Below are positions 1,637 through 33,433 of a stretch of DNA of 64,000 nucleotides, one piece after another. Below the pieces are notes generated by a model. It saw only the letters and a list, made by a program, of their open reading frames with translations. It was not told the origin of the DNA and did no database searches. The stretch spans positions 2,896 to 66,895 of the forward strand of contig JBBRBD010000002.1 of the NCBI GenBank assembly GCA_038206135.1, written 5' to 3'. The stretch is from Patescibacteria group bacterium (GTDB lineage Bacteria; Patescibacteriota; Microgenomatia; UBA8517). Each line of letters opens with the position of its first letter. Position 1 is the stretch's first letter. Position numbers and translations under genes: made by a program.

Positions 1637-3589
1637 TTATTTCATTTGCCCCGCAATAGCTGCAACTGCCGCAGGTGCTGTTGACTGATCAGCTGTAAGA
1701 ATTGTTTTGTTTTTGGTATCCATCAAGTCTTGTGGTTTTGTGGTTACAAATTCATATTCTTCAGGCGAGGCAACAACTCTAATTGGTGCGTGATGAGGGC
1801 CTGCAAACAATATTCCTTCTCCCACTCCTGCTGCAAGAAGGAGCTGCTTTTCCCCTTGAGACAAATAAAATGTTTCCGTAATGCGATCGATTGCGGCAGG
1901 GGATTGCTTAAGTAAAAGCCGCATTGCGGAGTTTGTCACAACAGCTTTTCCAATATCTTGTGAAAGGAAGTCTTCTACGTCTTGAGTTATTGTCGTTAAA
2001 CCTAAATAATATTTACGTGCGCGTTTTACAATCGACCACAAGAATGCTGCAGTATCTTCATACCTCATCATGTGCCACGCCTCATCAACAACGAGAAGTC
2101 TTTTTTTAATATCACGGCGTACTTTTGTCCAAATAAAATCAAGAATAATAAACATAGCAATAGGGCGCAATGTATCTTGAATGTCTCGCACTGAAAAAGT
2201 TGTAAACGGGTTTTCTATATTGATGTTTGTCTGTTGATCAAAAATTCCAACATAGCTACCTTTTACATATTTCTCAATTCTTGAAGCCAAATCAATTGCT
2301 TCTGTTGTTTCCATACCGATTAATGCTTTATATAAGTCTTCTATTAACGGTGGCTCTTTATCTTGAGTTTCAGGGTCCATCGTAATTCCTTTTGCTTTGT
2401 ATGCATTAATAAGTGCACGATCGAGGAGTGCTTCCTGGCTCGCATTTAATTCTCCCATTATGACTTTAAAAAGTGAGTGAAGGGTTAGAATTTTTAATCC
2501 AAGTTGGTTTTCACCTTTTTCGTAAATTTGAGACAAATCAAACGGGTTGATTTTCGATGGAGAGCTAAAACTAAATGCAATATATTCACCACCAACTGCT
2601 TCTGTTATTGCTCGATATTCGTTTTCAGGGTCGATAACAATAATTTCTGCACCCATCATAAGAGAGCGGAGAGATTCCAGTTTTACAAAGAAAGATTTCC
2701 CTGCACCGGAAGTTGCAAAAACGGTGAGGTTTGAATTCTCCAAGCTAAAGCGGTCAAAAATAATAAAGGAATCATTTTGTGCATTAATTCCGTACAAAAT
2801 TCCAGTGTCGCTCGAAAGTTCGGCAGTGGTAAATGGAAAAGTAGTCGCAAGAGATGTTGTATCCATGTTTCTTGTTATGGTCAGCACATCTCTCCCAAAT
2901 GGGGCTGATGATAGAAATCCTTTTTGATGATCGAGTGTTGCATGTTTTGAAACAATAAGTACCGAGCCCAATGTTGATTCAACACGCTTCGTAATGCTAT
3001 TTAGCTCTTCTTCGTTTGCAGCTGGAATTGTTATGTAAAAACTGTACTGATAAAAACGCTCAATTCCTTTTATGAGCTGCTCTTGTAAAACCTTTGCATC
3101 CTCAAGTTTTGCTTCTGTTCCAGGATTTACAATTTTTCCACGCTGGATATCAGTCGACATTTCGGCTTCCATTTCAGTAATTTTGCGACGCAATTCATCA
3201 AGAACAGTGCGTCCTTCGACCGGGTATATATAAAACGATATATCGAGACTATGGTCAAAATTAATAACTGGCTCTAGCCAACCAGGCACTACAAACCGTG
3301 GATAACCAGCCACAAACAGAGTTCTAAAATAAACTTGTCCAATTCGAATGCTATCAAAATTTACTTCAATGTCCTGTGGAGCTACAACGTCAGCAATAGT
3401 TAGTGTTTTGTCTTTTTTTAATGCCTCTACCGGGTCACCAAATTTCGGTCGATCGACCTGTTGTTCCATCGTTTTTGTTTGTATGTCAGAAGTATCGACA
3501 ATCGCAGGAGTACTTACTGGATTAACAGTCTGTTTAATTTGATCTGAGGCTACTGGTGTTGGCGCTTGGTTTGGTTGTGTTGGATTCAT
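1637..3589 (-). CDS. virB4: VirB4/TrbE/CagE-family type IV secretion ATPase
   Basis: 650 aa. Walker A motif ATSGAGKSFFVK. Walker B motif RLLVVDEAWHMM. Overall length and layout fit VirB4-like ATPases. Confidence 0.85.
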   Translation of the reverse strand: MNPTQPNQAPTPVASDQIKQTVNPVSTPAIVDTSDIQTKTMEQQVDRPKFGDPVEALKKDKTLTIADVVAPQDIEVNFDSIRIGQVYFRTLFVAGYPRFVVPGWLEPVINFDHSLDISFYIYPVEGRTVLDELRRKITEMEAEMSTDIQRGKIVNPGTEAKLEDAKVLQEQLIKGIERFYQYSFYITIPAANEEELNSITKRVESTLGSVLIVSKHATLDHQKGFLSSAPFGRDVLTITRNMDTTSLATTFPFTTAELSSDTGILYGINAQNDSFIIFDRFSLENSNLTVFATSGAGKSFFVKLESLRSLMMGAEIIVIDPENEYRAITEAVGGEYIAFSFSSPSKINPFDLSQIYEKGENQLGLKILTLHSLFKVIMGELNASQEALLDRALINAYKAKGITMDPETQDKEPPLIEDLYKALIGMETTEAIDLASRIEKYVKGSYVGIFDQQTNINIENPFTTFSVRDIQDTLRPIAMFIILDFIWTKVRRDIKKRLLVVDEAWHMMRYEDTAAFLWSIVKRARKYYLGLTTITQDVEDFLSQDIGKAVVTNSAMRLLLKQSPAAIDRITETFYLSQGEKQLLLAAGVGEGILFAGPHHAPIRVVASPEEYEFVTTKPQDLMDTKNKTILTADQSTAPAAVAAIAGQMK

Positions 3590-3590
3590 A

Positions 3591-4283
3591 TTATTCTTCT
3601 TTTGTTTCTGGTAATTCTTTTACAGAGTCTACGCTTGGGTTATAAATATCGTAGAACAAGTGTATCAATTCTTCGCGATTTAATTGTGTGGCTCTTAAAC
3701 CAAGGCGTGCACATTGCTTAATTAAATGGTCACGTTTTGGATACAAAACTGTTTTTACTTTTTTCAAAATGTAATCTTCGGTATAGGGTAGTGGTCCACC
3801 CTTTTTCATACCTGGAATAAGACCTTTGCTAAAGCCGAGTTCAAGCGGAGAGAAGGGAATAATCAAAAAGAACCGTTTTCCTAAAACATTTCGTTTTCGA
3901 ATAGTCTCGGAAATAAATGTTTTGTAATTTAACATGAGTTCTTTTAACTTGGGATTCTTCATCGCATTTATTTTCTCGTCCAAATACGATAAATAACTCC
4001 CAATATCTTTTCGTTGAGTGCGTACACTAATTTCAGTGGCAAACGATAAACTGTTAATCATCGCAGCGAATGCCGCAATTACTGCTTCTTGTTCACGTTC
4101 TGACAATAGTCCAAAGTTAAGCGACGAAGTTTCCAATACAATTGCAGCCCCTCCATCTTTGTACATGACGATGTCATCTAAAACATCTGCTATAGGAACA
4201 GCTTCTTGTGTTGCTTTTACAATAGGAGTATCAGGTGTGTTTAAAAGAGGTACTTTTGCAAACAGAGTATCAATTATTGCCAT
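3591..4283 (-). CDS. Hypothetical soluble protein (230 aa) immediately upstream of VirB4 with a 2-nt gap. It may correspond to the separately encoded N-terminal domain of VirB4.
   Basis: Tight operon coupling to the VirB4 gene. VirB4 here is about 150-200 aa shorter than typical ~800-aa VirB4 proteins. No recognisable motifs. Confidence 0.4.
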   Translation of the reverse strand: MAIIDTLFAKVPLLNTPDTPIVKATQEAVPIADVLDDIVMYKDGGAAIVLETSSLNFGLLSEREQEAVIAAFAAMINSLSFATEISVRTQRKDIGSYLSYLDEKINAMKNPKLKELMLNYKTFISETIRKRNVLGKRFFLIIPFSPLELGFSKGLIPGMKKGGPLPYTEDYILKKVKTVLYPKRDHLIKQCARLGLRATQLNREELIHLFYDIYNPSVDSVKELPETKEE

Positions 4284-4285
4284 AT

Positions 4286-5383
4286 TTATGCATTAGCCTT
4301 AACTGCCATTGGTGAAATTATCGCCCCGTGTATTTCAAAAGAAAGGGGTGAAAAAGTGAGACCTTCTTTTTCCACATTCATTTGATATGATCCATTTGGA
4401 AGGGGAGTTACTATCATGAAATGGCCCGCTTTGTTTGTTTTGAGAGCTCGAACAGGGCGACCTTGAAAGTCTTTAATTTCCAAAATAGCTCCTTCTACAA
4501 TTTTATTTTGAGCTGTCATTACCTGTCCCACAATTACATTTGGAATTGTAGCAGGTGAAGGGGGAGCTGCATCTGGTGAAAATTGTACGGCAACTGCAGA
4601 TTCTTCAGTTTGAGGATGAAGCGTCTGTTCTATTGGTGCAAGTGTTCCGGTTGCAGACCCTGACTGTTTTACCTCTGTTTGAGCAAATCCTGAGTGTTGT
4701 TGCATTGTAATTGCTGGAGTTGCAGGTGTAGCAACAAAAAGAGTCCCTGCTATTGGTGTAGGAGGTGTATATGCAACAACTGCTGCTGGCTTTGAAGCGT
4801 TTTGAAGTATTTCAGACTGAATAGTAGTAGACACATTCAGTGGTAATGATGTTTCTGGAACTAAAACATTGTTCCCTGGGATTTGGACAACAGGAACTGC
4901 TGTATTTGGTTGTGTAACTGAGGTTGTAGTTTTTTGATGCAAACTAAACATATCAGATATGTTTGCGAGAAAATTATTTTCTTTCGTTTCCATTTTTGTA
5001 ACTGATGCATCTGTTATTTTTGTTTGTCCTGGAATGGTGCTGGGAATCGCGGTTGTTGGAGCGATATTTGCACTCGCAAAATATGAGACATTACTGTCTT
5101 TTTTCCATCGATATTGTGTCGGGCCATAGACTGCTCTGAAAAACGCAGAAATCCATTCCTCTAGTGGACGTTCTTGAAGTGGTAAAAATGCAAAAGCAGC
5201 TCCTGCTACTACAAACAATACAATGAGTGGCCACTTAAAAATCGAAGGAAGGGGAGTGGCATACATAATAAGACCTAATACGGCACCCGCCGCAAGTTGA
5301 AAAAATTGCTTTAAAGTCATGTCACCTACCAATCGAAACTGGTATGAGCTTATTTGTTGAGGAACCGGATGTTGTTCAAACAT
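4286..5383 (-). CDS. Membrane protein with two N-terminal TM helices (VirB3/PrgI-like position), a Thr/Pro/Ala-rich linker, and a C-terminal carboxypeptidase-regulatory-like beta-sandwich domain
   Basis: N-terminal hydrophobic helices (LAAGAVLGLIMYATPLP ; WPLIVLFVVAGAAFAFLPL). C-terminal block VVGQVMTAQNKIVEGAILEIKDFQGRPVRALKTNKAGHFMIVTPLPNGSYQMNVEKEGLTF matches the CarboxypepD_reg/Cna-B-like G-V-D-G-P-GA-V pattern. Position immediately upstream of the virB4 genes. Confidence 0.5.
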   Translation of the reverse strand: MFEQHPVPQQISSYQFRLVGDMTLKQFFQLAAGAVLGLIMYATPLPSIFKWPLIVLFVVAGAAFAFLPLQERPLEEWISAFFRAVYGPTQYRWKKDSNVSYFASANIAPTTAIPSTIPGQTKITDASVTKMETKENNFLANISDMFSLHQKTTTSVTQPNTAVPVVQIPGNNVLVPETSLPLNVSTTIQSEILQNASKPAAVVAYTPPTPIAGTLFVATPATPAITMQQHSGFAQTEVKQSGSATGTLAPIEQTLHPQTEESAVAVQFSPDAAPPSPATIPNVIVGQVMTAQNKIVEGAILEIKDFQGRPVRALKTNKAGHFMIVTPLPNGSYQMNVEKEGLTFSPLSFEIHGAIISPMAVKANA

Positions 5384-5680
5384 TTTTAAAAATCTAATAG
5401 TCTACCACCTTCATCATCTCTTGTGTGAAGCCAATATTCAAGGAGCATACCTTTTCACGGTATAATATTAAATTGAAACATTTTGTCGCTTATAATTAAG
5501 AGTTACAAAAACTTGAAAAAGGTTTGTGGAAAGTATCTAAAGATTTCCTAAACTGCAGGAATCTTATTGAGGTTTAATATAATGAGAAAATAGTACTTGT
5601 TCTACGACACAAATACAAGATTTTTTCTTTATAAAATAAATCACCTCGGCAAGATGCCGAGGTGTTCTTGTAATTACCCT
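5384..5680 (-). promoter_or_regulatory. AT-rich ~300 bp intergenic region, a likely promoter for the VirB3-like/VirB4 operon (minus strand)
   Basis: Long non-coding AT-rich gap between co-directional genes. Contains TATAAT-like and TTGAAA-like hexamers. Not mapped precisely. Confidence 0.25.
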
Positions 5681-6625
5681 TTATGAGCAATTATATTCAG
5701 TTGTTTGTCCACTTTGGACGGTATGGATGGATTCCAATTTGACAACCTTTGTCGAGCTAAAGTCTTTCGACATTCCAGGGTCAATTCTCACACTTCTACC
5801 ATCAACATTCCACCAAACAATTACATTAAAGTCGGCGTTGCTTACCCAATTTTCTACATTGTCGAGCCAAACTTTGTTTTCCGACTTGTGCATGATTCCC
5901 ATCACTGTTGTACACAAATCCGTCTCGTTCACACTCTTACTTGTGGGTATCACTGTCAACGATATCTCAGGCGCATCATTAGTGACATCAAGTGCCTTTT
6001 GAATCGTGAGTACGTTTCCTGCGCTACTGTTGATGCTATTGATTATGTCTTGAGGTCCTTTAATTACAGGTGCAAATACCGCTTGTAATACAAGAATGAT
6101 TGCAACAACAATGGCGATGATAATCCCTGCAATTGCGGTAGTTCGCTTTTTGTTCTGTCCGTTTCTAAGGAAATACACCAACCAGACTATTGCAATTGGG
6201 ATGAAAGCAAACAGAAGTGTAGTACCAAGTGATCCGCCGAATCCAAATAGGATAGAGGCAATACAGTATATTGGCCCAAGTACTAAAAGAATTAGGCATG
6301 TAACCCATTTCTTCGCAAACTCTAAAATTCTGCCATTTGACGGGGTTTGTGTTTCTTCTGTTGCCGATACTTGAACTTCATCAGTTTGATCATTTGTCAC
6401 AATCTGTTCTGCTTCATCAAAAATTGAATTATCTTCACTGTCAGATGGAGCAGTCCATTCGTTATATGCTTTTCTCATCGTGTCAGAGGAAAGCACTCTG
6501 TACGCTTCTTGTACCTCATCATTTTTATCTGTCGCGGCGTTGTAAAGCGCCTCAATTTGAATTTTCGTGGCATTTCTATCTGCCCCTAGAACCTGATAAT
6601 AATCTTTGCTTGGATCAAAGTTCAC
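5681..6625 (-). CDS. Membrane protein with a degenerate J-domain-like N-terminus (no HPD), about three TM helices and a C-terminal extracytoplasmic domain
   Basis: N-terminus KDYYQVLGADRNATKIQIEALYNAATDKND-EVQEAYRVLSSDTMRKAYNEW aligns to J-domain helices I-III (DYYEILGV...EAYEVLSD..KR..YD). The HPD loop is replaced by a shortened TDKN loop. Hydrophobic segments at about residues 108-175. Confidence 0.45.
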   Translation of the reverse strand: MNFDPSKDYYQVLGADRNATKIQIEALYNAATDKNDEVQEAYRVLSSDTMRKAYNEWTAPSDSEDNSIFDEAEQIVTNDQTDEVQVSATEETQTPSNGRILEFAKKWVTCLILLVLGPIYCIASILFGFGGSLGTTLLFAFIPIAIVWLVYFLRNGQNKKRTTAIAGIIIAIVVAIILVLQAVFAPVIKGPQDIINSINSSAGNVLTIQKALDVTNDAPEISLTVIPTSKSVNETDLCTTVMGIMHKSENKVWLDNVENWVSNADFNVIVWWNVDGRSVRIDPGMSKDFSSTKVVKLESIHTVQSGQTTEYNCS

Positions 6626-6757: not shown

Positions 6758-7312
6758 TTAGTAGGAACAAATTGGTCTACTTAAGAGACTTGTTGAAATC
6801 CACTCATTTTGTCCAATTGATGCCCAGTCACCCGTTGTGTCAGTACCGAAATAGATGAGATTCGTCTGGTTTTGAACGTTACCTACAACGTCGGAATTGG
6901 ATGCAGGTCCGTTTCTAATCCGAGCAGTTTTATTATCAGATACAGTGACCACGACAGTGCAAACTTTTGGTGGAGAAGGTGTATCTGTTTCAAAAACAGG
7001 GATTGGTGTCAGTGTAATTGTCGCTGGAATTTCAGTTTTCGGAATATTGGTCGGTGAAATTGGATTTTTTGTAATTGTTGCCGTTGGAGTAATTATTTGA
7101 TGGATAGTTACCTCGTTTGACCTTAAAAATGCATATGTTGTACCAATTACAAGACCAATTGTTAGTAAAAAGCTGCCTACGATCAAAATTGTTGATCCAA
7201 TACAACCTAGTTGTCGACTTTCTACTTCCTTTTGAATGACATGGTGCCCTGTCTCATCCACATTCTCAAATATGTCATTTTCAGATATTTCAATTAAGCT
7301 TTCCTTTTCCAT
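6758..7312 (-). CDS. Single-pass membrane protein with a C-terminal bacterial SH3 (SH3b)-like domain
   Basis: One TM helix (ILIVGSFLLTIGLVIGTTYAFL). C-terminal TARIRNGPASNSDVVGNVQNQTNLIYFGTDTTGDWASIGQNEWISTSLL resembles the SH3_3 pattern (vRsGPs..s.vig.l..g..v........gdWaki...GWi.s.yL). Confidence 0.45.
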   Translation of the reverse strand: MEKESLIEISENDIFENVDETGHHVIQKEVESRQLGCIGSTILIVGSFLLTIGLVIGTTYAFLRSNEVTIHQIITPTATITKNPISPTNIPKTEIPATITLTPIPVFETDTPSPPKVCTVVVTVSDNKTARIRNGPASNSDVVGNVQNQTNLIYFGTDTTGDWASIGQNEWISTSLLSRPICSY

Positions 7313-7541
7313 TCAAAATTCTCCCCAGAAATAGGAAACAGCCAATTCTACCATAGTCCGATAGTCGGTTAGTGAAAAATCATAAATATTGTAGATAACG
7401 CTGCATTGATTGAACTCAATATCAATTTGTGATACTATTGTCGGAGTTTACTTTCTAATCGACTGATGGGCACATTAACAATCCAATAATAATTACTATA
7501 CGGATTCTTATCGTGTCTTTCTAAAGTGAAAGAAGTCTTCA

Positions 7542-8372
7542 ATGAAATATCTACTGTTATGGTTTGTAAGCGGATTTCTTATTTACATCATAGTACCTCC
7601 GCTTATTGCGGCGGTACCACAATTTCAACAGGAGTTATTCTCTGTTTTTTCTGGTGTAATTCCTTTGTATACAGATCAAATGAAGGTGTTCTCAGTCGTC
7701 TTGTCTGGCCTTTTTGTTGTATTTCTATCAATGCTTGATAGTTTTTTGAGACCCCGTCCAGTTCTTCAGCCACAACAAAATGCCCGTCCCGCAGCTTTCG
7801 TTCCTGTGAATTCTCAAGTTTTAACATCACAAGGAGACCCAGCAGCGTCTAATCCAAGAACAATCACAAGACGTGTACCTCGAACAAATAGCATGGGAAC
7901 TCCGCATCTAGAGCTTAGATCATTCAAGTTAATAGCACACAATGGTATTAATTTTAGACTATCAAAAGGGGATGATCTTACTTCGAAAGAAAAGTTTCGA
8001 CCAGTTATTGAAATTCGGGTAAATAATCCTGAACTTGTTGGGAAAGTATTGCCACTGCAATTTGATTTGATAAATCCAGACGGCAAGATGATTAACAGTT
8101 TAAGATTAATGCCGATATTAAAGCGAGGCCGGAATATAATTGTTCCTGATGACTCAGAATTTGAGGTTTCTAGCAAAGAAGCTGGTGTGTGGGCAATGAA
8201 ACTACTGTATGGTCAGCACTTGTGGGGAAGGCTCATTTTTACAATGTTAGGGCAAAGCATCTCTAACTTATCGAGCCATATTGGGGCAGATATGGAGATG
8301 GATGGTGAAGCTTTACTTGCGGCAAATGAAGTTACTCGAAATTTCACGTTAGAAGATCTGTTAAGACTTTAA
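7542..8372 (+). CDS. Hypothetical membrane protein (2 N-terminal TM helices plus a ~190-aa soluble domain). First gene of the E2/JAB/E1 operon.
   Basis: 276-aa ORF ending 18 nt before the E2 gene start (same strand). Hydrophobic N-terminus (LLLWFVSGFLIYIIVPPLIAAV ; VFSVVLSGLFVVFLSML). Confidence 0.5.
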   Translation: MKYLLLWFVSGFLIYIIVPPLIAAVPQFQQELFSVFSGVIPLYTDQMKVFSVVLSGLFVVFLSMLDSFLRPRPVLQPQQNARPAAFVPVNSQVLTSQGDPAASNPRTITRRVPRTNSMGTPHLELRSFKLIAHNGINFRLSKGDDLTSKEKFRPVIEIRVNNPELVGKVLPLQFDLINPDGKMINSLRLMPILKRGRNIIVPDDSEFEVSSKEAGVWAMKLLYGQHLWGRLIFTMLGQSISNLSSHIGADMEMDGEALLAANEVTRNFTLEDLLRL

Positions 8373-8389
8373 AACAAGGAGAAGATTCA

Positions 8390-8899
8390 ATGTCAAATTG
8401 GTGGATTGATACGGGAAATAGACCTTCCACACGACTTGCGGTGGAGGTTATTGCGATGAAAAAGGCGTTTGTCGAAAAGGAATTAACTGATTTTAAATAC
8501 GGTGCTAGTTGGGACAGGCCTTTTCAAATAAAAACGCTGCGAAAAAAACTTCATATAGAAGGTTCCGCAGCTCCGTATTGGCAACTTGAGTTTGTTATGC
8601 AGCCTATGCCTGGAGTTGCCCCGCTGTTAAATTCATCTGACGTTTTTAAACTTCAGATTCTGTACACTTCTGACTTTCCTGGTAAAGAACCGCAGGCAAA
8701 TTATCTTTCACCAGATGTCAGCGGTTCACTTCATCTATTTGTTAGTGGAAATAAACTGTGTTTGCACAATCACAGCTCAGCAAATAGTGGGTGGGATCCA
8801 GCTCGTTCAACAGCAGCAACTATAGCTGTCTGGTCCATCCAATGGGCCCGAGCATGGCTAAGCTGGAAACTAACTGGTTCTTGGCCAGAAGTACAATAA
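8390..8899 (+). CDS. Ubiquitin-conjugating enzyme (E2/UBC)-like protein, the prokaryotic E2 of an E2/JAB/E1 operon
   Basis: 169 aa. SDFPGKEPQANYLSPDVSGSLHLFVSGNKLCLHNHSSANSGWDPARSTAATIAVWSIQW parallels the eukaryotic E2 core (YPFKPPKV.F....HPNI...G.ICLdiL...WsPa.ti..vL.si). Candidate catalytic Cys is in NKLCL. Strong RBS AAGGAG upstream of the ATG. Confidence 0.65.
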   Translation: MSNWWIDTGNRPSTRLAVEVIAMKKAFVEKELTDFKYGASWDRPFQIKTLRKKLHIEGSAAPYWQLEFVMQPMPGVAPLLNSSDVFKLQILYTSDFPGKEPQANYLSPDVSGSLHLFVSGNKLCLHNHSSANSGWDPARSTAATIAVWSIQWARAWLSWKLTGSWPEVQ

Positions 8900-8906
8900 A
8901 AAGGAC

Positions 8907-9989
8907 GTGAAAAGAATGAATCAAAAAAGAGATTCAGATCGTACGCCGGGGCTATTAGTTCCCCGGCATATCTTTACCAAAATTGCAGCAGAAGCTGCTT
9001 TACATCCTAAGACAGAAACTGGAGCATCTTTTGTAGGCATTGAAACTCATGATCTTATGGTTATCTTAGGGGTTATTCCTGATGAGGTAAACATCGAACG
9101 TTCTCCTGGATTATTTGTGAATGGGGGTGAGTATCAAGTTGAGCTTTTTCGCTGGTACAAAAAACACTGGGATATGATGAGAAAGGAATCTCGGTTGCTA
9201 GAGAACCAGATAAGCTGGTCTGCAACCGTGAAATTACCCTCGAATTATGTCCCACCAGAACTTGATTTCGATTTGAAATATCTAGGTGATTGGCATAAGC
9301 ATCCAGGATCAATGACGTATTTGAGTTCTCGTGACATACGCACAATTGGGAGTATTTTGTCGGATGTTGAGCAAAACCGTCATCAACTGCTGTCTCCAAT
9401 TGTAACAAAGCTTTCAGTACAGAATGACAGTCCTTTGCAGTCACATGAAGTGTCATTCGATAAGTTTCGTATGACTTGGTATTACTCAGCACGTAACATG
9501 ACAAAACCAGTAGGAATTAAATCATTTCCTATTAGTAACTCAAATCTACCTAGTTTGCCTCCAGTTCCGTGGCATCTCAAAGATCTGAGGAGATTTGATG
9601 ACGAGATCATGTACCTTGGGCTAAAAGGCTACCGTGTATTATCACGAATTCGTGATGTGGACAATGATTCTATTTGCGAGGTTGTTTTTTCGATAGAATC
9701 ACCGTGGCAGCCTAAGAAATATTTGGTAGTCACGAAATGGGATTACCCTGAAAGTGCGCCTCAAATCTACCAATATTCGACGATAGCTGAAGGTGATGAA
9801 GGGACACATATTGATGTCCAATCTTCAACAAAGAATGATTATATTGTAGATCTAATATCTACAGAGGAAGGATATCTTTATGAACCAACGCAACAACCAC
9901 TGGACGAGAATAGAAGACCTAGTTGGCTCGGGTTTCTCAAGATTGCGCCAAGTAAAATTAGGCGTTATTGGCCTCGGTTCACTCGGTAG
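8907..9989 (+). CDS. JAB/MPN (JAMM) metalloprotease, a deubiquitinase-like peptidase of the Ubl-conjugation operon
   Basis: GDWHKHPGSMTYLSSRD is an exact HxHx7Sx2D JAMM zinc motif. Upstream acidic residue is in IAAEAALHP. 360 aa. Confidence 0.7.
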   Translation: MKRMNQKRDSDRTPGLLVPRHIFTKIAAEAALHPKTETGASFVGIETHDLMVILGVIPDEVNIERSPGLFVNGGEYQVELFRWYKKHWDMMRKESRLLENQISWSATVKLPSNYVPPELDFDLKYLGDWHKHPGSMTYLSSRDIRTIGSILSDVEQNRHQLLSPIVTKLSVQNDSPLQSHEVSFDKFRMTWYYSARNMTKPVGIKSFPISNSNLPSLPPVPWHLKDLRRFDDEIMYLGLKGYRVLSRIRDVDNDSICEVVFSIESPWQPKKYLVVTKWDYPESAPQIYQYSTIAEGDEGTHIDVQSSTKNDYIVDLISTEEGYLYEPTQQPLDENRRPSWLGFLKIAPSKIRRYWPRFTR

Positions 9990-10743
9990 TTTAACAACAG
10001 TTCAACTCGCGATGTCTGGGGTTCAAAATTTTGTTTTGATTGACCCAGATATTCTTGAAGATAATAACATCGTTAGACACGCAGCAGATTTACGGTATGT
10101 CGGTATGTCTAAAGTTTTGGCAGTTAAGGACTTAATCCTAAATCGAAACTCTGAAGCAACCGTGAATGCAATTTCTGCAAATGTTATGGATTGCACAGAT
10201 GCTCTACATGATGTCGATTTTGTTCTTGTTGCAGGCTTGGGATCAGAGATTGTTACAACAAATGTAGCATTGAAGATTAGAGAACTGAACAAGATAGCAT
10301 TGTTCAGTGGCATCTATGAAAAAGCCGTTGCAGGAGAGGTCTTTATTGTTCATCCAACAATAGGGCCTTGCTACTCATGTTTTGCTAGTCGTTTGAGATC
10401 ATCAGAACCTCAAATACAGAAGGATGTTGATTACGGACTTCCAATTGACGAACTTAAGGCACAACCTGGACTTGGGTCTCATATTGTGAGAGTATCTTCA
10501 GTTTTTGCAGACTGGACATTACGCCTTGCAATCCATGATTCAAATATTTTGCCTTATTTCCCTGGTAATCTTGTAATATTGAGTAATGAGGCGTATAATT
10601 TTGGCAATGACAAGGAAGGTAATGCTCTCAGATTGCCACCTTCGTCTGCAAAGTGGCTTACAATAAAGAAATTACATAAGTGTAATATTTGTAGCCCACC
10701 AGATTTTCTGTTCGAATCGTTCGAAGAACTTGAAGGAGATTAA
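9880..10743 (+). CDS. E1-like ThiF/MoeB/HesA-family adenylyltransferase (minimal E1)
   Basis: Rossmann motif KLGVIGLGSLGSLTTVQLAMSGVQNFVLIDPDILEDNNIVRH (GxGxxG, then D.D.ve.sNl.Rq). Two CxxC pairs (CYSC ; CNIC). Strong RBS GAGGAAGG 8 nt upstream of the ATG at 9880, which lies inside the 3' end of the JAB ORF (110-nt overlap in a different frame). Confidence 0.7.
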   Translation: MNQRNNHWTRIEDLVGSGFSRLRQVKLGVIGLGSLGSLTTVQLAMSGVQNFVLIDPDILEDNNIVRHAADLRYVGMSKVLAVKDLILNRNSEATVNAISANVMDCTDALHDVDFVLVAGLGSEIVTTNVALKIRELNKIALFSGIYEKAVAGEVFIVHPTIGPCYSCFASRLRSSEPQIQKDVDYGLPIDELKAQPGLGSHIVRVSSVFADWTLRLAIHDSNILPYFPGNLVILSNEAYNFGNDKEGNALRLPPSSAKWLTIKKLHKCNICSPPDFLFESFEELEGD

Positions 10744-10744
10744 A

Positions 10745-10948
10745 ATGGCCACAGTTCCGACTCGTCGTGAAGGTCAATCCGATCCTAATCAGGAAGGTCG
10801 AGATGCTGAAGTTCGTGTGGGTACTACCGTTCCCGACGATCAATTGAGGCAAATGATGGGAAGTTTTGGTGATCTTGATGAAGAAGATGGCAATCCGGAT
10901 AGTCGTCCGGATGAAGTCGCCTTAAATAAAACCCGTACTTGGGGTTAA
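10745..10948 (+). CDS. Small (67 aa) acidic, low-complexity protein ending in Gly (…NKTRTWG). Candidate ubiquitin-like/Pup-like modifier, or a substrate, of the adjacent E1/E2/JAB enzymes.
   Basis: ATG sits 1 nt after the E1 stop codon and has RBS GAAGGAG. Sequence MATVPTRREGQSDPNQEGRDAEVRVGTTVPDDQLRQMMGSFGDLDEEDGNPDSRPDEVALNKTRTWG is predicted disordered and acidic with a C-terminal Gly. A rho-independent terminator follows immediately. Confidence 0.4.
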   Translation: MATVPTRREGQSDPNQEGRDAEVRVGTTVPDDQLRQMMGSFGDLDEEDGNPDSRPDEVALNKTRTWG

Positions 10949-10960
10949 GACATTTTCGTA

Positions 10961-10992
10961 GGGGTGAGGATAATTCCTCACCCTTTTTTGTT
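10961..10992 (+). terminator. Rho-independent terminator closing the E2-JAB-E1-small-protein operon
   Basis: GGGGTGAGGA taat TCCTCACCC followed by TTTTTTGTT. Confidence 0.6.
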
Positions 10993-11053
10993 GCAAACAA
11001 CCCATAATTATGTTAAAATGCTGAACTCCTGGAAAATAGTAGCATAAAGTTAT

Positions 11054-13348
11054 ATGCTGACTGTACATATGCCAGAAGACACCCCAGAAAATATGAAAGA
11101 ATTAGGATTAGAACACGGAGTAGACACTTCAATTCATAGTGATTTCGGTGATTTTGCGCCACCAACATATGAGCATGGTCAAGGTAATAGTCATAACGTA
11201 AATAACGATAATTTAGGCGAAGATAAGCGGTTTGTGTCTGAAGGAGATATGGATATTCTTGCGAAAGCATTACTTCTTTCATCTCGAGAACAAGATGAAT
11301 TATCAGATAATGATAAGGCTTGGATAAATGATCACAAAGGTGCAATTACAAACGCGGTGAGGAACGGAAATTTTGACAGTCATTTTGCCAACCAATTAGG
11401 AATAAGGGGTGAACAGGAAAACACTCCAAATGCTCCTCAAACCACCGTAGATGATGATAGATGGAGTGCTTTTGGTGGAGTTGATTGGGATGCTGCTGCG
11501 AATTCAGGTGAAGCTACTGTACCTCCTGTCAATATTCCTGAAGATCAAAAAAACAACTGGTATCGAGAGTTAGCGGAAGATTGGAGATCTAAACCTCAAA
11601 CGCGAGAATATTGGATTGGAAATCAAGAAAAGGGTGTACAAGACAAACGCTCTATTTTGCAAAACGCTGGAATGACAGATCAAGAAATTAGTGAACTGGT
11701 TAATGACCATACATTTCAAAATAACAGTCGTGCTGGGAAGCCTGTACGTCCAGAAGATATCTCTGAGATAAATGTTTCTAAGCCGGTGAGAGTTGATTCT
11801 CATAATCCAGTTGTAGCAATTGGAACTGAAAGGGTAATACCGACTCCTTTGACTGAGTCCGACCATTCTGGGAACCGTGACTACTTAAAAGGTATCGAAA
11901 GCATGGAATTAAAAGAGCAAATTAAACAGATACGTTTGTTGTGTCAAGACATTCAAGCAACGTATCCAGATCTTCCATTGAGGGAAATCTCTCGGCAAGA
12001 TCCTGAAATATCAGCACAAATTGGAAGACTTGAGCGTGAGATGCGAAAATCAGAATCTCGAACTCCACATTTGGAAATCTTCAAAGAAGCCCTAATGGAG
12101 GCAAAAGTTTTTATTGGATTGCATGATACTGTTGCAAATCTAAATCAAGTAAATTTTAAGGCAGATGAGGTCGAACGTGACATTAAAGCAAAGTATAAAA
12201 CGTTAGAAGACCAGAAACGCGCTCTTTCAGGTGTTGATTTGGCAGCGCTTCTTAAGAATGAAGTTATTTCATTTAGAGGTAGTAACAGAGAAACAGCCAC
12301 CAAGTATCACGAAGGATTGCCCGTAGGGAAAGCACATATGTTATTGCAGGAAGTTTCGACAAAGGGTTTGCCTTTAAATCCTGAAATTCGTTTGGGAGAT
12401 CCTCGTCTAACAGCCGACCAAAAAGCTCTTATTAAAGACTATTTGTACACTGAAATTAAGAAGGTACCAGATATCGAAGATCCCGATTGGACACTTGAGC
12501 TAGCAGAACTTTATGACAAATTTAGTTATGGAACAAGTTTAAGAAATTTAAAAGGATCAGACCCTGTATCAAAAGCAATGTATTTACAACAATTTAGAGA
12601 ATCTACCTTGGAGAAAAAACAGGCAGGAACAACAGGGGATGACCTTGGTCCATACTATACAATAGATGCTGTTCCTTCCGTTGGCTTAACTTCACTAGAT
12701 AGACATATCAGTATCAAAGATAGTGCTGGAAATTCCCACAAACTTGCAAATGCAAGACTTTGGGAAACAGATCCTAGTATTTCAGGCTTAATTCTACCGT
12801 ATGATTTACAACGATATGATCCATATAACCCTGTTCGAAGTGCCTCTACCATTGTTGACCCTACAACACTTAGATGGGAAGATGTTACTTCAACTGACAT
12901 AAAAGATTATTTTACTAAAGCAGTTCCTGCTGGTGTACAGGCAACAGATTGGTTCCTTCGATCCGATTGGTCACTGTCAGAACTTAGAAAAGACAATTTA
13001 GAGAAGTTGCGTTCAAGTTTTAATGTGTTAGACCCAGATGATAATTTGAAATTAGCACCACTGTTAGTCATTGGAATTCTCACTGAATATCAAGCGACAG
13101 TTAACCCAAGTACAGAAAAAGTAGAAGGAACCTTCGGGGATCCGTTTGCAGTGAGAAGATTCCTTGACTTATTGAAGCGTCAACCGAATCCATTTTTAAA
13201 ACCCGAACAAGTGACATACATTGAGTCAGGATTGATGATTGAAGATGAATCGGGAAGAGAACGCAAACTTGACCCAGTAGGATTCGCACACAACATTAGA
13301 CTTCGAAGAACATATACTCGACCACTCCAACCTGTAATCCGTTCATAA
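11054..13348 (+). CDS. Large hypothetical soluble protein (about 750 aa) with no recognisable domain. Possible effector or target linked to the Ubl-conjugation operon or the T4SS.
   Basis: Long uninterrupted ORF with its own promoter-like region after the terminator. No signal peptide or TM segment. Confidence 0.55.
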   Translation: MLTVHMPEDTPENMKELGLEHGVDTSIHSDFGDFAPPTYEHGQGNSHNVNNDNLGEDKRFVSEGDMDILAKALLLSSREQDELSDNDKAWINDHKGAITNAVRNGNFDSHFANQLGIRGEQENTPNAPQTTVDDDRWSAFGGVDWDAAANSGEATVPPVNIPEDQKNNWYRELAEDWRSKPQTREYWIGNQEKGVQDKRSILQNAGMTDQEISELVNDHTFQNNSRAGKPVRPEDISEINVSKPVRVDSHNPVVAIGTERVIPTPLTESDHSGNRDYLKGIESMELKEQIKQIRLLCQDIQATYPDLPLREISRQDPEISAQIGRLEREMRKSESRTPHLEIFKEALMEAKVFIGLHDTVANLNQVNFKADEVERDIKAKYKTLEDQKRALSGVDLAALLKNEVISFRGSNRETATKYHEGLPVGKAHMLLQEVSTKGLPLNPEIRLGDPRLTADQKALIKDYLYTEIKKVPDIEDPDWTLELAELYDKFSYGTSLRNLKGSDPVSKAMYLQQFRESTLEKKQAGTTGDDLGPYYTIDAVPSVGLTSLDRHISIKDSAGNSHKLANARLWETDPSISGLILPYDLQRYDPYNPVRSASTIVDPTTLRWEDVTSTDIKDYFTKAVPAGVQATDWFLRSDWSLSELRKDNLEKLRSSFNVLDPDDNLKLAPLLVIGILTEYQATVNPSTEKVEGTFGDPFAVRRFLDLLKRQPNPFLKPEQVTYIESGLMIEDESGRERKLDPVGFAHNIRLRRTYTRPLQPVIRS

Positions 13349-13406
13349 TTTAATCTGTAGTAAGTATCAAGAATATTTACGACTTCTCAATTTATTGAAG
13401 TAAAAT

Positions 13407-15074
13407 TTATAAACCTTGCTTTTTAGATTGTCCAGATGGCTTGATTTGTTGATTTAGAGCACCTGTTGTATTCTGAGCCTGTCTCAATGTGTCTTCTGTT
13501 CGCTTAGCAGCTTTAGCTTGTTGCCACTCTTCTTGTCTTCTTGATCCAAAAGTTTGGACCCTTCCAAGAACATTGTTAGTTAATTCTTTTCGCACATCTT
13601 TAATTTGTCCTCCTATTGCACCTCCCACAATGCCAGCGCCGAGCATTGTTCCGAATGTGTCAGCTCCATAGCTTCCTCTACCTGAAGCAATTTGATCTCT
13701 CACTCCAGAGGCGATTTTGGGTGCTGAAAAGATGATTCCGAAACCAATAAAGAAGGCAAGAATTTGAATAGGGAAACCTCCAAAACCTGGAAGTAAAATT
13801 GCACTTCCGTTTACTTGGTTTGTTGCAAAGTTGAAGTAGTTTGCACCTCCTGTTAGGATATCTCCGAGCCATCCATTTAAATCAATTGTCATTGTCCAAA
13901 ACACCATGTGTGCTAAGAGCATTGTTAAACAAATAGCTACAAATACAGATAATTGTGCAACCATTTGTCGAATCCAACCACCGATCCCTGGCCCAATTGA
14001 AACCACACCCAGAAGGCCAATAATTGGGGCTCCAATCACCAAAAAGACAATCATAGTGAAAGCTTTAAGCATAGTTACAAATATTCTAAAAATTGCTACT
14101 AGCCCGAGTCCTAGTAGAATTACACCGATAAGTCCGGCTACTGCTCCAACAATTGTTGCGAGTCCACCAGTTGCAATTGTTCCAATTACAGCAGTAGCTC
14201 CTGCTCCAAAGATAAATCCACCTAAAATTATGGTCCAGCCAGTAAATGCTGCAATTGGGTTGTTTAGTTTATTAAAGATGTCAATAACATTTGGAGCACC
14301 ACCTTTAAATAGCCCGCTTTGTGCGACTATTGCAGAGGAAAGTCCCATTACGACATATGCCAAATCTATAATAAGTCCTGCTATTGCATATGAAAAAGTA
14401 ATAAAGATAAGGGCAATTGCAACTTTGGGAAGTGCAGACTGTACACTTACGACTACTTGAGGAGCTATCTTTTGCCTTAACATAATCATAAATGCAAGAA
14501 TAATGATCACAAATGACATGAGTCCAAAAGCAACATTCCTAAATGCTACCCACAATCTTTGGAGTGGTTGAAGTGCTCCGAAACCAGTTCCTTCTTGAGC
14601 ATAAGCATCCTGTACTGGAGAATATTGCCTTATTTTCTGAGCAACATAGTCAATACCAGACGCTGGCTTATGAGATAAAAACGAGTCGGCAGCTCCCGCT
14701 AAAAACAAAACTGGACTACTCAATGGTGCTTCTGCCTGAATGTTTGAAACACATTGTGAAGTATTTGCCCCTGCACTAAAACACTGAGACATTGATCCAG
14801 CCTGAAGTAGCGCAAGGGAATTGACTATCCAATTGACTTGAGCGAACGTATATCTCTCACCAAAAATATCTGTATCATTTGCGCTTCCTGGAGGGAATAC
14901 TTTTGAATTGAATGTGTTTAAATCTGGGTTCCACCATTGGGTAGCATTTCCTGCTGGGGCAGTTTGTGCATGAACATTTGAGATGGGATAGGCCACTGAA
15001 ACAATCACCAATAGAAGTGTTGTAATAGCCAATAATTTATTTTTCATATTTGTAAAAACTTCTATCTTAAACAT
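13407..15074 (-). CDS. VirB6/TrbL-like polytopic membrane protein with N-terminal signal peptide and hydrophilic C-terminal tail
   Basis: 555 aa. Signal-like N-terminus (KNKLLAITTLLLVIVSVAYPISNVHAQ). At least 6 Gly/Ala/Ile-rich TM helices. Charged C-terminus. Sits next to the pilin gene. Confidence 0.5.
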   Translation of the reverse strand: MFKIEVFTNMKNKLLAITTLLLVIVSVAYPISNVHAQTAPAGNATQWWNPDLNTFNSKVFPPGSANDTDIFGERYTFAQVNWIVNSLALLQAGSMSQCFSAGANTSQCVSNIQAEAPLSSPVLFLAGAADSFLSHKPASGIDYVAQKIRQYSPVQDAYAQEGTGFGALQPLQRLWVAFRNVAFGLMSFVIIILAFMIMLRQKIAPQVVVSVQSALPKVAIALIFITFSYAIAGLIIDLAYVVMGLSSAIVAQSGLFKGGAPNVIDIFNKLNNPIAAFTGWTIILGGFIFGAGATAVIGTIATGGLATIVGAVAGLIGVILLGLGLVAIFRIFVTMLKAFTMIVFLVIGAPIIGLLGVVSIGPGIGGWIRQMVAQLSVFVAICLTMLLAHMVFWTMTIDLNGWLGDILTGGANYFNFATNQVNGSAILLPGFGGFPIQILAFFIGFGIIFSAPKIASGVRDQIASGRGSYGADTFGTMLGAGIVGGAIGGQIKDVRKELTNNVLGRVQTFGSRRQEEWQQAKAAKRTEDTLRQAQNTTGALNQQIKPSGQSKKQGL

Positions 15075-15436: not shown

Positions 15437-16912
15437 TTAACTGTTTTTGCAAGAGTTTGGTAGAGGGCGCTCATATAAAACAGAAGCTTCGTCCTCATAC
15501 ACTATTTTCCACACTTTTTTATCAAGTTCCTCTGTCAAATTTATGGGTGATATCTCATTTATCAACTGAGAAGGAGAATTTTCTCTAGTCCATAAAAACC
15601 TGGTGATACAAAATTCTTCAAGTATTGGTTTAATAGGTTCATTTTTAAGACTGAGTGAAATATACGATTGAAGAGCATTTTGTAATTCATTGGGTTTAGT
15701 ATCTTGTCTCCATGGAATCATACGACCGTCAATAAAGACTTTATTTTTTGGAGACTTCCACAAAAGGTATGTATTCCAGTGCAATATTGAAAAAATGTTT
15801 CCTTCATGAGGGTTTTTCGAAATGTAAATGACGGCATTCTCAGGATAAGCTAATTGACTCACAATTATTTTGCTTCGTACGTTTAATATTGTTTCAATAA
15901 TAAGTAAAATAACCCCAAATATAATCGTAATACGAAGAATTTGTAGTAAACGTTTTTTGTCTATCATTTTATTCGCTAAAAATTTATTGCTTGCTTTAAC
16001 GATCACAAAGCTAGCGCTTAAAGCAAAGAGAGGGAGTACTCTTGTTGAAAGCAAACCATTGAGAAGCAGCAGTATCGTAAATATCTCAAGCCATCTGACT
16101 TTCTTTGTCAACCATAGAGTAGTGAAAAACAGTGAGATTAAAGCCAACAAGCTAAAACTAGTAACACGTGTTGCCGGTTGCCATTCAAGTACATATCTAT
16201 TTAAGGGATTTATTATAGTACTGAGTGTCTCTCTCCAAGTACCCAAAAAGTATGGGGTTATTGCTGTGACTAAAGTTGCGGTTAAAACAATGAAAAACAA
16301 ATGCATCTTTAACTTCGAATCAACTGTCTCTGATGAAAAAAGTAAGATGTCTATAATCCAATATCCCCACAGGTATATAACTCCCAGTATAAAACCACCA
16401 TGTAAATTTACCCATAGAAATAGAATTAGCGGAATTGAAATCGCGAGCATTCGAATGTTTTTTTTTGACCGTGACATTAGTGCTATTATTGTCGCTGTCA
16501 ACAGAAAACTAGTTGCTTGAGCACGTGTTCCAAAATTATCCAAACAGCTTGCAGCAAGAAGTGGCATAATCCAAATAGCATTGCCACTCGCTATATAAAT
16601 GCCAATCGTTGCAATTAAAGAGCAAAGAGCAGCGACTCCTACATATCCCAAGTGAAATTTTGAATACACGAGTGCGAAGATAACACTCATACCCCAGGAG
16701 TGGTCAATGTATTTGTATGAGGGCATTGTATAGCTATATGGATCATTAAAATAAAAATTTCCGGAAAGGATGTCCGTCCCGTGCCTCATATGCCAAGGAA
16801 AGTCTGGATCAAGAAATGAATATGCAGCTGCAAATAAGCATATAAATACGATTATCAGAATAAGATTTCTTGCTTTGAAGTATCTTGAAGGCCACTTATT
16901 GATAGTGGTCAT
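15437..16912 (-). CDS. GT-C-fold glycosyltransferase-like polytopic membrane protein (paralog of 18139..19605)
   Basis: 491 aa. About 11 TM helices plus a ~120-aa soluble C-terminal domain. Acidic DPD motif in the first extracytoplasmic loop (FLDPDFPWHMRHGTDIL). Shares YSYTMPSYKYIDHSWG with its paralog. Confidence 0.5.
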   Translation of the reverse strand: MTTINKWPSRYFKARNLILIIVFICLFAAAYSFLDPDFPWHMRHGTDILSGNFYFNDPYSYTMPSYKYIDHSWGMSVIFALVYSKFHLGYVGVAALCSLIATIGIYIASGNAIWIMPLLAASCLDNFGTRAQATSFLLTATIIALMSRSKKNIRMLAISIPLILFLWVNLHGGFILGVIYLWGYWIIDILLFSSETVDSKLKMHLFFIVLTATLVTAITPYFLGTWRETLSTIINPLNRYVLEWQPATRVTSFSLLALISLFFTTLWLTKKVRWLEIFTILLLLNGLLSTRVLPLFALSASFVIVKASNKFLANKMIDKKRLLQILRITIIFGVILLIIETILNVRSKIIVSQLAYPENAVIYISKNPHEGNIFSILHWNTYLLWKSPKNKVFIDGRMIPWRQDTKPNELQNALQSYISLSLKNEPIKPILEEFCITRFLWTRENSPSQLINEISPINLTEELDKKVWKIVYEDEASVLYERPLPNSCKNS

Positions 16913-24157: not shown

Positions 24158-24163
24158 ATGTGT

Positions 24164-25087
24164 TTAAAATAACCCAAGAATAGTTATCCCTAGTATTCTA
24201 AAAATGAAGACTGAAAGTGCTAGTAGAATAATTCCAGAAACGGCAGACATCAAAAGCTCTTTTCCTACTTGTAATCTTTTTGGATCTCCTTGTGATGTCA
24301 TTACCATAAACGAAGCATACACTAAGAATAGTGTACCAATTCCTCCCGCGATACCTAAGCCCCATTTAAGGAAAAAAGCGGCAAATGTGTTAGTATCGCC
24401 AATCGGTATGCATCCAATTGCAGTATCAATATTGTTGGTACTGCAATTTCCTTGAATATTAACACTCGTAACTGGCTGGGTTCCAGTCCCCGGATTTCCA
24501 ATTTGTCCGTTTGGGAGACAGCAGGACGAAACATTGCTGGGACAGCTACCGGTTATTGATGTTTCTGTTCCACTACAAGCTGTTTTGCATGTTGCTTTTG
24601 GATTCACTGAAGTACACGCACCTGGATTAACAGCAGTTGTACAAGCAGAGGCACAGGTTGCTGAGTCTGTGTATGGAGCAGGTGGGCCACTTGTGCAATC
24701 AGGGATTGATGTCTGTGGATCATAATCACATTGAGAGCAAGATTTAGCGCCAGTAGCCGAGGTATCACACTTATAACCTCCATTGGGAACTGTTTGTGTA
24801 GTACAAGGGATAAATAAAGGCTGATTAATACAAGAACTCACTGGTTGGCTCCGACAAAATGAAAAAAGATCTGAGCTCGGAGGGGTAGCTCCCGTAGCAC
24901 AACTATTGGCAGCTGGATTGCCTCCTGGAGCTGGACCCGTTTCACAAAATTGTGTTGCATCTTGATATACACAAACAACACAACCTTTACTGGGGTCAGG
25001 ACAAGACGATGCTTGAGCTAATACTTCTTTTTTTGAAACATTGAACAACAAAAAGACTAGGACTATGAATGATATTGCTTTTTTCAT
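24164..25087 (-). CDS. Secreted Cys-rich protein fused to a C-terminal TrbC/VirB2 pilin domain (smaller paralog of 22640..24157)
   Basis: 307 aa. Signal peptide. Cys-rich extracellular domain. C-terminus FFLKWGLGIAGGIGTLFLVYASFMVMTSQGDPKRLQVGKELLMSAVSGIILLALSVFIFRILG. Confidence 0.6.
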   Translation of the reverse strand: MKKAISFIVLVFLLFNVSKKEVLAQASSCPDPSKGCVVCVYQDATQFCETGPAPGGNPAANSCATGATPPSSDLFSFCRSQPVSSCINQPLFIPCTTQTVPNGGYKCDTSATGAKSCSQCDYDPQTSIPDCTSGPPAPYTDSATCASACTTAVNPGACTSVNPKATCKTACSGTETSITGSCPSNVSSCCLPNGQIGNPGTGTQPVTSVNIQGNCSTNNIDTAIGCIPIGDTNTFAAFFLKWGLGIAGGIGTLFLVYASFMVMTSQGDPKRLQVGKELLMSAVSGIILLALSVFIFRILGITILGLF

Positions 25088-32450: not shown

Positions 32451-32518
32451 AATGACTCAATTTCAATACATCTTGATAGAAAATAATCGAAACTGTTTAT
32501 ACTCGTTACTTCACAATG

Positions 32519-33426: not shown

Positions 33427-33433
33427 CAAGTAG

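Follow-up and report, generated by a model that had tools for sequence, protein, structure and literature searches.

Can a disordered protein take the place of the beta-grasp modifier in E1/E2 conjugation? This question is raised by a small gene at positions 10745-10948 (+ strand) of a 64,000-nucleotide stretch of DNA, called the window here, from a Patescibacteria group bacterium (UBA8517; contig JBBRBD010000002.1 of assembly GCA_038206135.1). The gene encodes a 67-residue acidic protein that is predicted to be disordered, and it follows the genes for an E2-like protein, a JAB/JAMM metallopeptidase and an E1-like adenylating enzyme in an operon of five small genes located between type IV secretion genes. 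Conjugation by E1 and E2 enzymes is thought to use a beta-grasp modifier, and the one known exception is the type II cyclic oligonucleotide-based antiphage signalling system (CBASS), in which the tail of a signalling enzyme is used. The only known disordered tags are Pup and UBact, which are served by unrelated ligases. A preliminary description of the window had proposed that the small protein is a disordered tag of the Pup or UBact kind with an activated C-terminal Gly. Here we compared the small open reading frame (ORF) and its neighbours with related loci, and we favour, with moderate confidence, the reading that the small protein is a free-standing, disordered, non-beta-grasp modifier that would be trimmed by JAB, activated by E1 and transferred through the Cys of E2.

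A small acidic ORF coupled to the E1 gene

The small ORF starts at ATG 10745-10747 and stops at TAA 10946-10948. Its 67-residue product, MATVPTRREGQSDPNQEGRDAEVRVGTTVPDDQLRQMMGSFGDLDEEDGNPDSRPDEVALNKTRTWG, which we treat as a candidate non-beta-grasp modifier ('tag'), terminates in ALNKTRTWG. Between the stop codon of the E1 gene (TAA, 10741-10743) and the ATG of the small ORF there is exactly 1 nt. The ribosome-binding site, read from the sequence as AAGGAG (10733-10738, + strand), is located 6 nt upstream of this ATG and thus within the end of the E1 gene, by which the small ORF is translationally coupled to E1. The operon is closed by an intrinsic terminator (10960-10991, + strand), in which a GC-rich stem of 11 pairs (6 GC) with a 4-nt loop, spanning 10960-10985, is followed by TTTTTT. 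It folds with an energy of -21.5 kcal/mol (z = -3.5), a stability matched by 1 of 200 shuffled sequences, and it is the strongest terminator-like site across the 6.5 kb scanned (7000-13500). The acidic ORF ending in TRTWG, the 1-nt spacing, the ribosome-binding site and the terminator had all been pointed out in the preliminary description, and the sequence bears them out.

The encoded protein has an isoelectric point of 4.29, 15 Asp and Glu residues versus 8 Lys and Arg residues, a net charge of -7 and a grand average of hydropathy of -1.26. In the charge-hydropathy analysis of Uversky it is positioned on the disordered side, with a mean hydropathy of 0.36 versus a boundary of 0.45. Neither the window form nor the form found in Chloroflexota (branch B, see below) matched any Pfam, NCBIfam or PADLOC model.

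Conservation of the small ORF in two branches

A word-indexed sequence search with the small protein found one relative only, P0002, with 67% identity, and an exhaustive profile search from these two closest sequences against 1.84 billion representatives gave nothing real further. Since searches with the small protein alone almost failed, we followed the family by synteny through E1. Close E1 relatives are few (24 proteins). The window's branch is named branch A, and in every branch A contig of sufficient length the gene order is the same, namely a membrane protein of about 260 residues, E2-CBASS, JAB, E1 and the small ORF. The small ORF is positioned directly behind E1 in all nine complete loci, with gaps of -8 to 54 nt, and the complete small ORFs (n = 9) encode 59-103 residues. 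A GGAG-type site precedes it in all but one of the eight branch A loci with available DNA. When ten loci were compared, eight had such a site, and L104 and L007 did not.

The Chloroflexota branch, named branch B, was obtained from a scan of species-representative genomes. With an E1 alignment as the query, 19 Chloroflexota loci were found, mostly from Anaerolineae, with E1s of 34-40% identity, while a genome-contig scan with a single E1 query had given no matches. In 17 of these 19 loci a small ORF of 84-130 residues is located directly after E1. Two look-ups of E1 contigs and a metagenome scan added seven more branch B loci, so that a small ORF follows E1 in 24 of 26 branch B loci in total and is complete in 21. 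The metagenome scan gave no new complete branch A member, and three further contigs supplied more. Among viral contigs only one partial ThiF match was found, and a blastn search of a plasmid collection with the operon found no match. Finally, a profile built from the small ORFs of both branches matched at least 1,616 proteins at E <= 0.01, all annotated as 'hypothetical' and none with a Pfam domain. The search for homologous small ORFs beside E1/E2/JAB triads that had been proposed for this locus thus succeeded in 9 of 9 branch A loci and 24 of 26 branch B loci.

Alignment of the two branches revealed two shared motifs, in which VPDDQLRQMM of the window corresponds to ITPEEFARLQ of branch B, and VALNKTRTWG corresponds to VSLRKRRAWY. 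Members of the family begin with an N-terminus that is variable, acidic and rich in Pro, and they continue with a short helix motif, the C-terminal motif [ST]-L-x-K-x-R-x-[WF]-[G/Y] and a hypervariable tail of 0-17 residues. The mid-protein motif [VI]-P-x-[DE]-[DE]-x-[LF]-x-x-[LM] is found in the branch A small ORFs, including those of L104-L106. In the complete genome or contig members of branch B (n = 20), a variable, acidic and Pro-rich N-terminus precedes the conserved core LGPRLERLGGEPAPDITPEEFARLQQAGQIHIDPRGRVRT...DAG[IV]SLRKRRAWY, which is followed by a variable tail. Across the same 15 genomes the 59-residue core shows a mean identity of 87%, compared with 71% for E1, so the core of the small protein seems to be constrained more strongly than the enzyme.

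A chance open frame between E1 and the terminator would have neither annotation nor family, and the empty profile search from the two closest sequences is what such a frame would give. The comparative data refute this explanation and leave it practically no probability: the position, the ribosome-binding site, the length class and the two motifs are conserved, and the family counts at least 1,616 members by profile. Based on the retention of these four features across loci whose E1s share 35-57% identity, the sequence comparison indicates that the small ORF is a real, conserved gene. It is the only partner of E2-JAB-E1 that the two branches have in common.

Predicted disorder of the small protein

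AlphaFold modelling of the window protein from a 61-sequence alignment gave a mean predicted local distance difference test score (pLDDT) of 57.6 and a predicted template modelling score of 0.18, with a single helix at residues 31-38. This helix lies in the helix motif (residues 29-38, VPDDQLRQMM; codons 10829-10858, + strand), which is the sole predicted secondary structure of the protein. The model of a branch B member contained two short helices and one hairpin, with a pLDDT of about 88 over residues 41-60 and no structure in the last 20 residues. A Foldseek search against the PDB returned 0 matches at E <= 0.001, with no ubiquitin-like protein in the list. By AlphaFold, Foldseek, Pfam and NCBIfam, the small protein does not have a beta-grasp fold, in agreement with the earlier suggestion that it is disordered. 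The models are consistent with a disordered protein in which one small element would probably become ordered when it binds a partner.

The C-terminal motif and its variable tails

The C-terminal signature of the window protein (residues 58-67, VALNKTRTWG; codons 10916-10945, + strand) contains the invariant or nearly invariant L60, K62, R64 and W66, followed by Gly67, which is the proposed activated residue. In branch A the motif reads [ST]-L-x-K-x-R-x-[WF]-G, and its Gly is kept in all nine members. It is the terminal residue in four of them (the window, P0002, L002 and L104), and in the others it is followed by G, D, TDL, EEASE or the 17-mer PGEASEPPAEPEAGSTG. In branch B the exact sequence SLRKRRAWY is present in 117 of the 120 best hits of the profile search, and it is followed by a hypervariable tail of 0-7 residues, with no residue in 4 of these 120 proteins, one in 29, two in 40 and three in 38. 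A nearly invariant motif with an unconstrained short tail looks like the precursors of ubiquitin-like proteins that are trimmed by their own peptidase. According to the Bil paper, the JAB peptidase BilC removes the residues after the reactive Gly of BilA precursors, and in type II CBASS the cut made by Cap3 falls exactly behind the final residue of the CD-NTase.

The window protein contains a single Lys, K62, which does not vary in either branch. This pattern would also be expected if the small protein were a target, to which another protein would be joined by its C-terminus at Lys62 or at a different site. We consider this very unlikely. The branch B operon does not encode any other protein with a conserved, processable C-terminus, and the explanation leaves the C-terminal motif with its trimmed-looking tails unaccounted for.

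The E2, JAB and E1 enzymes

The neighbours had been named as E2, JAB and E1 in the preliminary description, and profile searches agree with these names (PADLOC E2, 2.7e-8; PADLOC JAB, 6.7e-10; Pfam ThiF, 2.8e-21). The E2-like protein (169 residues; 8390-8899, + strand) is of the UBC-fold, CBASS type, and its homologs carry PF26395 (E2-CBASS). His115 and the putative catalytic Cys in Leu-Cys124-Leu are invariant and are conserved at every locus.

The JAB/JAMM metallopeptidase (360 residues; 8907-9989, + strand), which also matched Pfam Prok-JAB (6.5e-4), contains an intact motif formed by Glu37 and H130-K-H-x7-S140-x2-D143, with the JAMM motif HKHPGSMTYLSSRD. Over eight loci E37, H130, S140 and D143 are invariant. 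The second His of the JAMM motif is replaced by Gln in L007 and in the Phototrophicaceae loci L024 and L025 (GDWHKQPG). The JAB protein has in addition a conserved C-terminal domain (residues about 205-300; 9519-9806) that lacks Cys. P215, P219, W222, E233, T276, Y280 and P281 are invariant in it, and its motif reads P..P.W ... T.WDYP. This domain could be an inactive E2/RWD-like domain, which the comparisons do not establish: an hhalign comparison with the E2 alignment covered only 13 columns at 4.5% probability, and a faint match to Pfam RWD (E = 0.16) was seen in one homolog. The last 27 or so residues of the window JAB do not align with any homolog, and the JAB gene overlaps the E1 gene by 110 nt (9880-9989) in the window versus 4-17 nt in relatives.

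The E1-like adenylating enzyme (287 residues; 9880-10743, + strand) consists of a single ThiF/MoeB-type domain and matched PADLOC E1-E2 with 1.2e-22. One database record gives it as 266 residues, and the 287-residue start aligns better with homologs. The enzyme keeps the GxGxxG loop and the nucleotide-binding set N63/R66/D70/K78. Two CxxC pairs (C164/C167 and C268/C271) fit a zinc site, and no fifth Cys is conserved. The closest solved relatives are MoeB, UBA5, MccB and ThiF, with Cap2 weaker. Judging from the conserved residues, the enzymes of the operon look competent, with two oddities, namely an E1 that lacks a conserved catalytic Cys and, in branch A, also lacks the usual Mg-binding Asp.

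When the window E1 is compared with the PDB as a single sequence, MccB is its top match (4e-11), and a profile also places MccB and PaaA high. These matches are in line with another explanation, in which the small protein belongs to the natural-product type of precursor peptides and would be modified by an MccB/PaaA-like E1 and matured by JAB. Furthermore, in part of branch B the small ORF is followed, or overlapped at its end, by the gene for a PCMT-like methyltransferase, and the combination of a variable N-terminus and a conserved core at the C-terminus is reminiscent of leader-core precursors. Enzymes of the PCMT-like family tailor some ribosomally made peptides. On the contrary, a UBC-fold E2 with invariant Cys and His is present at every locus, and we know of no natural-product precursor pathway that uses such an E2. 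The E1 also lacks the N-terminal peptide-binding domain of MccB, which comprises about 100 residues, since the alignment starts at residues 111-115 of MccB versus 18-21 of E1. Neither an exporter nor an immunity gene was seen in the operons, and the window's branch lacks the methyltransferase. Based on these observations, we regard a precursor peptide as distinctly unlikely.

A proposed modification cycle

Direct support here covers the reality of the gene, its synteny, the conservation of its motifs, the predicted disorder and the intact catalytic motifs of E2 and JAB. Because no other partner of E2-JAB-E1 is kept in both branches, the small protein is the best candidate for the substrate of E1, and from this, together with its disorder and precursor-like C-terminus, we infer conjugation by E1 and E2. 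The modifier role proposed in the preliminary description is supported to this extent by the sequence comparisons.

In the cycle that we propose, JAB would recognise ...L-x-K-x-R-x-W-G and trim anything after it; in the window Gly67 is already terminal, and there would be nothing to trim. A homodimeric ThiF-type E1 would bind the tag, probably via the helix motif and the C-terminal motif, and would adenylate the terminal carboxylate. The acyl-adenylate would probably be attacked directly by Cys124 of E2, forming an E2~tag thioester. Direct transfer from the adenylate to the Cys of E2 would be the simplest route, since E1 is without a conserved catalytic Cys at the place of C513 in Cap2. BubCD provides a precedent for an E1 of this kind, and Cap2/Cap3 provide one for the conjugation of a tail that is not a beta-grasp. 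The tag would be moved from E2 to a target amine, and JAB may also undo the modification. In branch A, the membrane protein encoded by the first gene of the operon, which shares the [ST][IL][DE][DE]LL peptide of E1, would be the best guess for a membrane adaptor or target.

Here, we need to consider the observations that weigh against a modifier role. First, the position of the Gly is occupied by Tyr in 117 of the 120 sampled branch B members, and we know of no E1 that activates a C-terminal Tyr. The Gly pointed out in the preliminary description is kept in branch A, where it is terminal in four of nine members, and in branch B the residue is a different one; this Tyr is the main doubt over the modifier reading. 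Second, the usual Mg-binding Asp of ThiF/MoeB-type enzymes is replaced in branch A, in which 14 of 14 E1s contain GLGSE (residues 119-123; 10234-10248 in the window) versus VD(G/S/N)E in branch B. The adenylation competence of the branch A E1 is therefore not certain, and the invariant Glu two residues on might stand in for the Asp. Third, two complete Phototrophicaceae genomes (OZ251572.1 and OZ251576.1; loci L024 and L025) contain E2-JAB-E1 and no small ORF within 5 kb. Relatives that lack the ORF had been put forward as evidence that would count against the idea; the ORF is kept nearly everywhere, and these two loci are where it is missing.

The first two of these points also bear on an alternative in which the small protein is a non-covalent regulator, inhibitor or adaptor that binds E1, E2 or JAB by its two linear motifs. 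The real substrate would then be elsewhere, such as the C-terminal end of either the membrane protein or an unlinked protein. Disordered proteins with short conserved motifs are typically binders, and the Gly-to-Tyr difference between the branches is more plausible in a binding motif than at a residue activated by E1; an E1 without the usual Mg-binding Asp, as in branch A, is also in line with such a role. However, a binding motif need not be C-terminal, while the motif here lies 0-7 residues from the end in 120 of 120 sampled branch B proteins and 0-17 residues from the end in branch A. In addition, the catalytic residues are retained in the enzymes, which must act on some substrate, and the branch B operon contains no other conserved candidate. 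We therefore consider a regulator unlikely, although it is the most probable of the alternatives.

Returning to the modifier, a broader claim would be that the operon represents a fifth bacterial ubiquitination-like pathway with a dedicated disordered tag, trimmed by JAB and conjugated by E1 and E2, that is 'Pup-like in form, ubiquitin-like in chemistry' and in which Tyr is the reactive residue in branch B. We put this forward only tentatively and judge it slightly more doubtful than probable. If the modifier reading is true, the beta-grasp fold would be dispensable for E1/E2 chemistry, and the tail mechanism of CBASS would be linked to general tagging. It would also mean that an unstudied modification pathway is apparently widespread in the genomes of Chloroflexota, mostly Anaerolineae. 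In the window's organism, trypsin would leave a Thr-Trp-Gly remnant on the modified Lys, corresponding to +344.148 Da as calculated from standard residue masses; for the Chloroflexota form the remnant on Lys would be AWY, at +420.180 Da.

The first gene of the operon and a shared C-terminal peptide

The first gene of the operon (7542-8372, + strand) encodes a 276-residue membrane-anchored protein without a Pfam, NCBIfam or PDB match. Two hydrophobic segments are found at its N-terminus and a beta-rich domain at its C-terminus, with a linker rich in Pro and Gln in between, and the protein ends in TLEDLLRL. Homologs occupy the same position in L001, L003, L005, L104 and L105, and the gene is not found upstream of E2 in the branch B loci L006, L007 and L024. 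No beta-grasp ubiquitin-like protein was detected in the operon, in which this is the only extra gene. We considered it as a hidden ubiquitin-like protein acting as the universal modifier and rejected it from sequence comparisons, its fold not having been modelled: its sequence matches nothing in Pfam or the PDB, and branch B lacks the gene.

A peptide of the form [ST]-[ILV]-[DE]-[DEQ]-L-L ends both the membrane protein and E1 (window; L001, L003, L005, L104, L105, L106, L004 and L007). Examples in the membrane protein are TLEDLLRL, the window copy at 8346-8369, as well as TIDDLLRA and SIDDLLSS. Examples in E1 are SIDDLLQ, SIDELLEV and SLDDLLGG, and the window E1 carries the degenerate SFEELEGD (10711-10740). 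The shared peptide suggests that the membrane protein and E1 may dock on one common site. UBA5 recruits its own E2 via a C-terminal peptide in a similar manner. The membrane protein is thus a candidate target, adaptor or effector.

Genomic context

In the window the operon is preceded by genes of type IV secretion, comprising a VirB4-like protein (VirB4/TraG P-loop; 1637-3589), a 230-residue ORF (3591-4283) that is 66% identical to a gene of L001 labelled 'TraC-like (weak)', and a PrgI-like protein (4286-5383). Two pilin-like proteins (22640-25087) and a SpoIID-like gene (25168-26865) are located further downstream. L001 has the same secretion genes beside its operon (7227-12715), and its VirB4 is 86% identical to that of the window while its E1 is only 57% identical. 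A link of branch A to a secretion or conjugation apparatus is a lead rather than a finding. Directly after the operon there are a 764-residue ORF (11054-13348, + strand) without a Pfam or NCBIfam match, and ORFs of 555 residues (13407-15074, - strand) and 491 residues (15437-16912, - strand) without a Pfam match. Next to the secretion genes of the window there is a transfer-messenger RNA (tmRNA) gene (30242-30614, - strand) with the unusual predicted tag DKSNDSVAFDNHGFVPMFA, and close to it a tRNA cluster (32518-33636) of four tRNA-Ser, one with the called anticodon ACT, and one tRNA-Arg. Since tmRNA genes are common integration sites, the block of secretion genes may be an integrated element. 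The GC content is about 38% throughout the window, with no clear boundary.

The Gly-ending form, which is the rarer one, occurs next to type IV secretion genes in genomes of low GC content such as that of the window. Branch B loci are located in ordinary-looking, housekeeping-like chromosomal settings, and every named locus is from a metagenome-assembled genome of Chloroflexota, mostly Anaerolineae. In branch B the small ORF is followed by a PCMT-like methyltransferase of about 390 residues and/or a NUDIX hydrolase of about 210 residues, often with overlapping stop and start codons (L007, 6485-7675; L013, 6288-7451; L033, 1724-2926; and L008-L011, L015-L020, L022, L023 and L026). In the Phototrophicaceae locus L024, E2-JAB-E1 spans 3291-5930. 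In L003, a gene of the anti-Thoeris Tad4 family (9157-9891) and an HSDR_N_2 gene lie about 1-3 kb downstream of the operon, which hints at a defence or counter-defence neighbourhood.

Comparison with known conjugation systems

The described set of related bacterial systems comprises families 6a-6e (Iyer et al. 2006), type II CBASS, Bil I/II and Bub I/II, none of which has a free-standing disordered modifier. We found no description of this operon type or of the motif in the openly searchable literature, subscription-only papers being outside this scope.

The MccB/MccA and PaaA/PaaP pairs also place a ThiF-type enzyme beside a short unstructured peptide with C-terminal chemistry. They differ in that they make antibiotics and have neither E2 nor JAB, and the E1 here is without the N-terminal peptide-clamp domain. 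The Bub systems (6e/DUF6527) share a homodimeric E1 that lacks a catalytic Cys, as in BubCD, as well as a sparse distribution and functions in bacteria. Bub is characterized by beta-grasp ubiquitin-like proteins, E2/E1 or JAB/E1 fusions, the DUF6527 serine protease BubE and oxyester intermediates; none of its fusions, BubE or the beta-grasp BubA was seen in the operon with Pfam, and the E2 here keeps its Cys. The BilABCD systems (family 6d) have separate genes in the order E2, JAB and E1, and BilA precursors often carry extra residues after the reactive Gly that are removed by JAB. However, BilA is a beta-grasp protein encoded first, whereas the candidate modifier here is disordered and encoded last, and the E1 of that system, BilD, combines two adenylation domains, one inactive and one active, with a mobile Cys domain, whereas the E1 here is a single adenylation domain of 287 residues.

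Pup is a small acidic disordered tag in which a helix-forming segment and the C-terminus are conserved. The candidate tag resembles Pup and UBact in size (about 60-70 residues), acidity, disorder and its conserved helix-forming segment and C-terminal residues, which is an analogy of form. Beyond this analogy the likeness proposed in the preliminary description does not hold: the sequences are not similar (no Pfam match at E <= 0.1), and the protein ends in TRTWG and not in GG[QE]. The chemistry would also differ, with activation of the alpha-carboxylate by E1/E2 here versus ligation of a Glu side chain by PafA/Dop, and no PafA/Dop-type ligase was found in the operon or among the neighbouring genes scanned in the local region.

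In mechanism, the closest system is type II CBASS (family 6b of Iyer 2006). There are differences. The operon and the related loci contain no CD-NTase, effector or cyclic-nucleotide signalling genes; a weak PADLOC 'Cyclase' match of E2 (0.028) covers only positions 456-535, the C-terminal end of the 542-position model. E2 and E1 are separate proteins here and are not fused, and E1 has no counterpart of Cap2 C513, which lies 17 residues past CxxC. In place of an enzyme tail there is a free-standing disordered protein of 60-120 residues, with its own motifs and no enzyme attached. On the other side, the E1, E2 and JAB of the operon are most similar to CBASS-type models. The substrate in type II CBASS is likewise a flexible, non-beta-grasp segment, namely the C-terminal tail of the CD-NTase ending in Gly or Ala that is conjugated by Cap2/Cap3, and the JAB of that system cuts exactly after the end residue.

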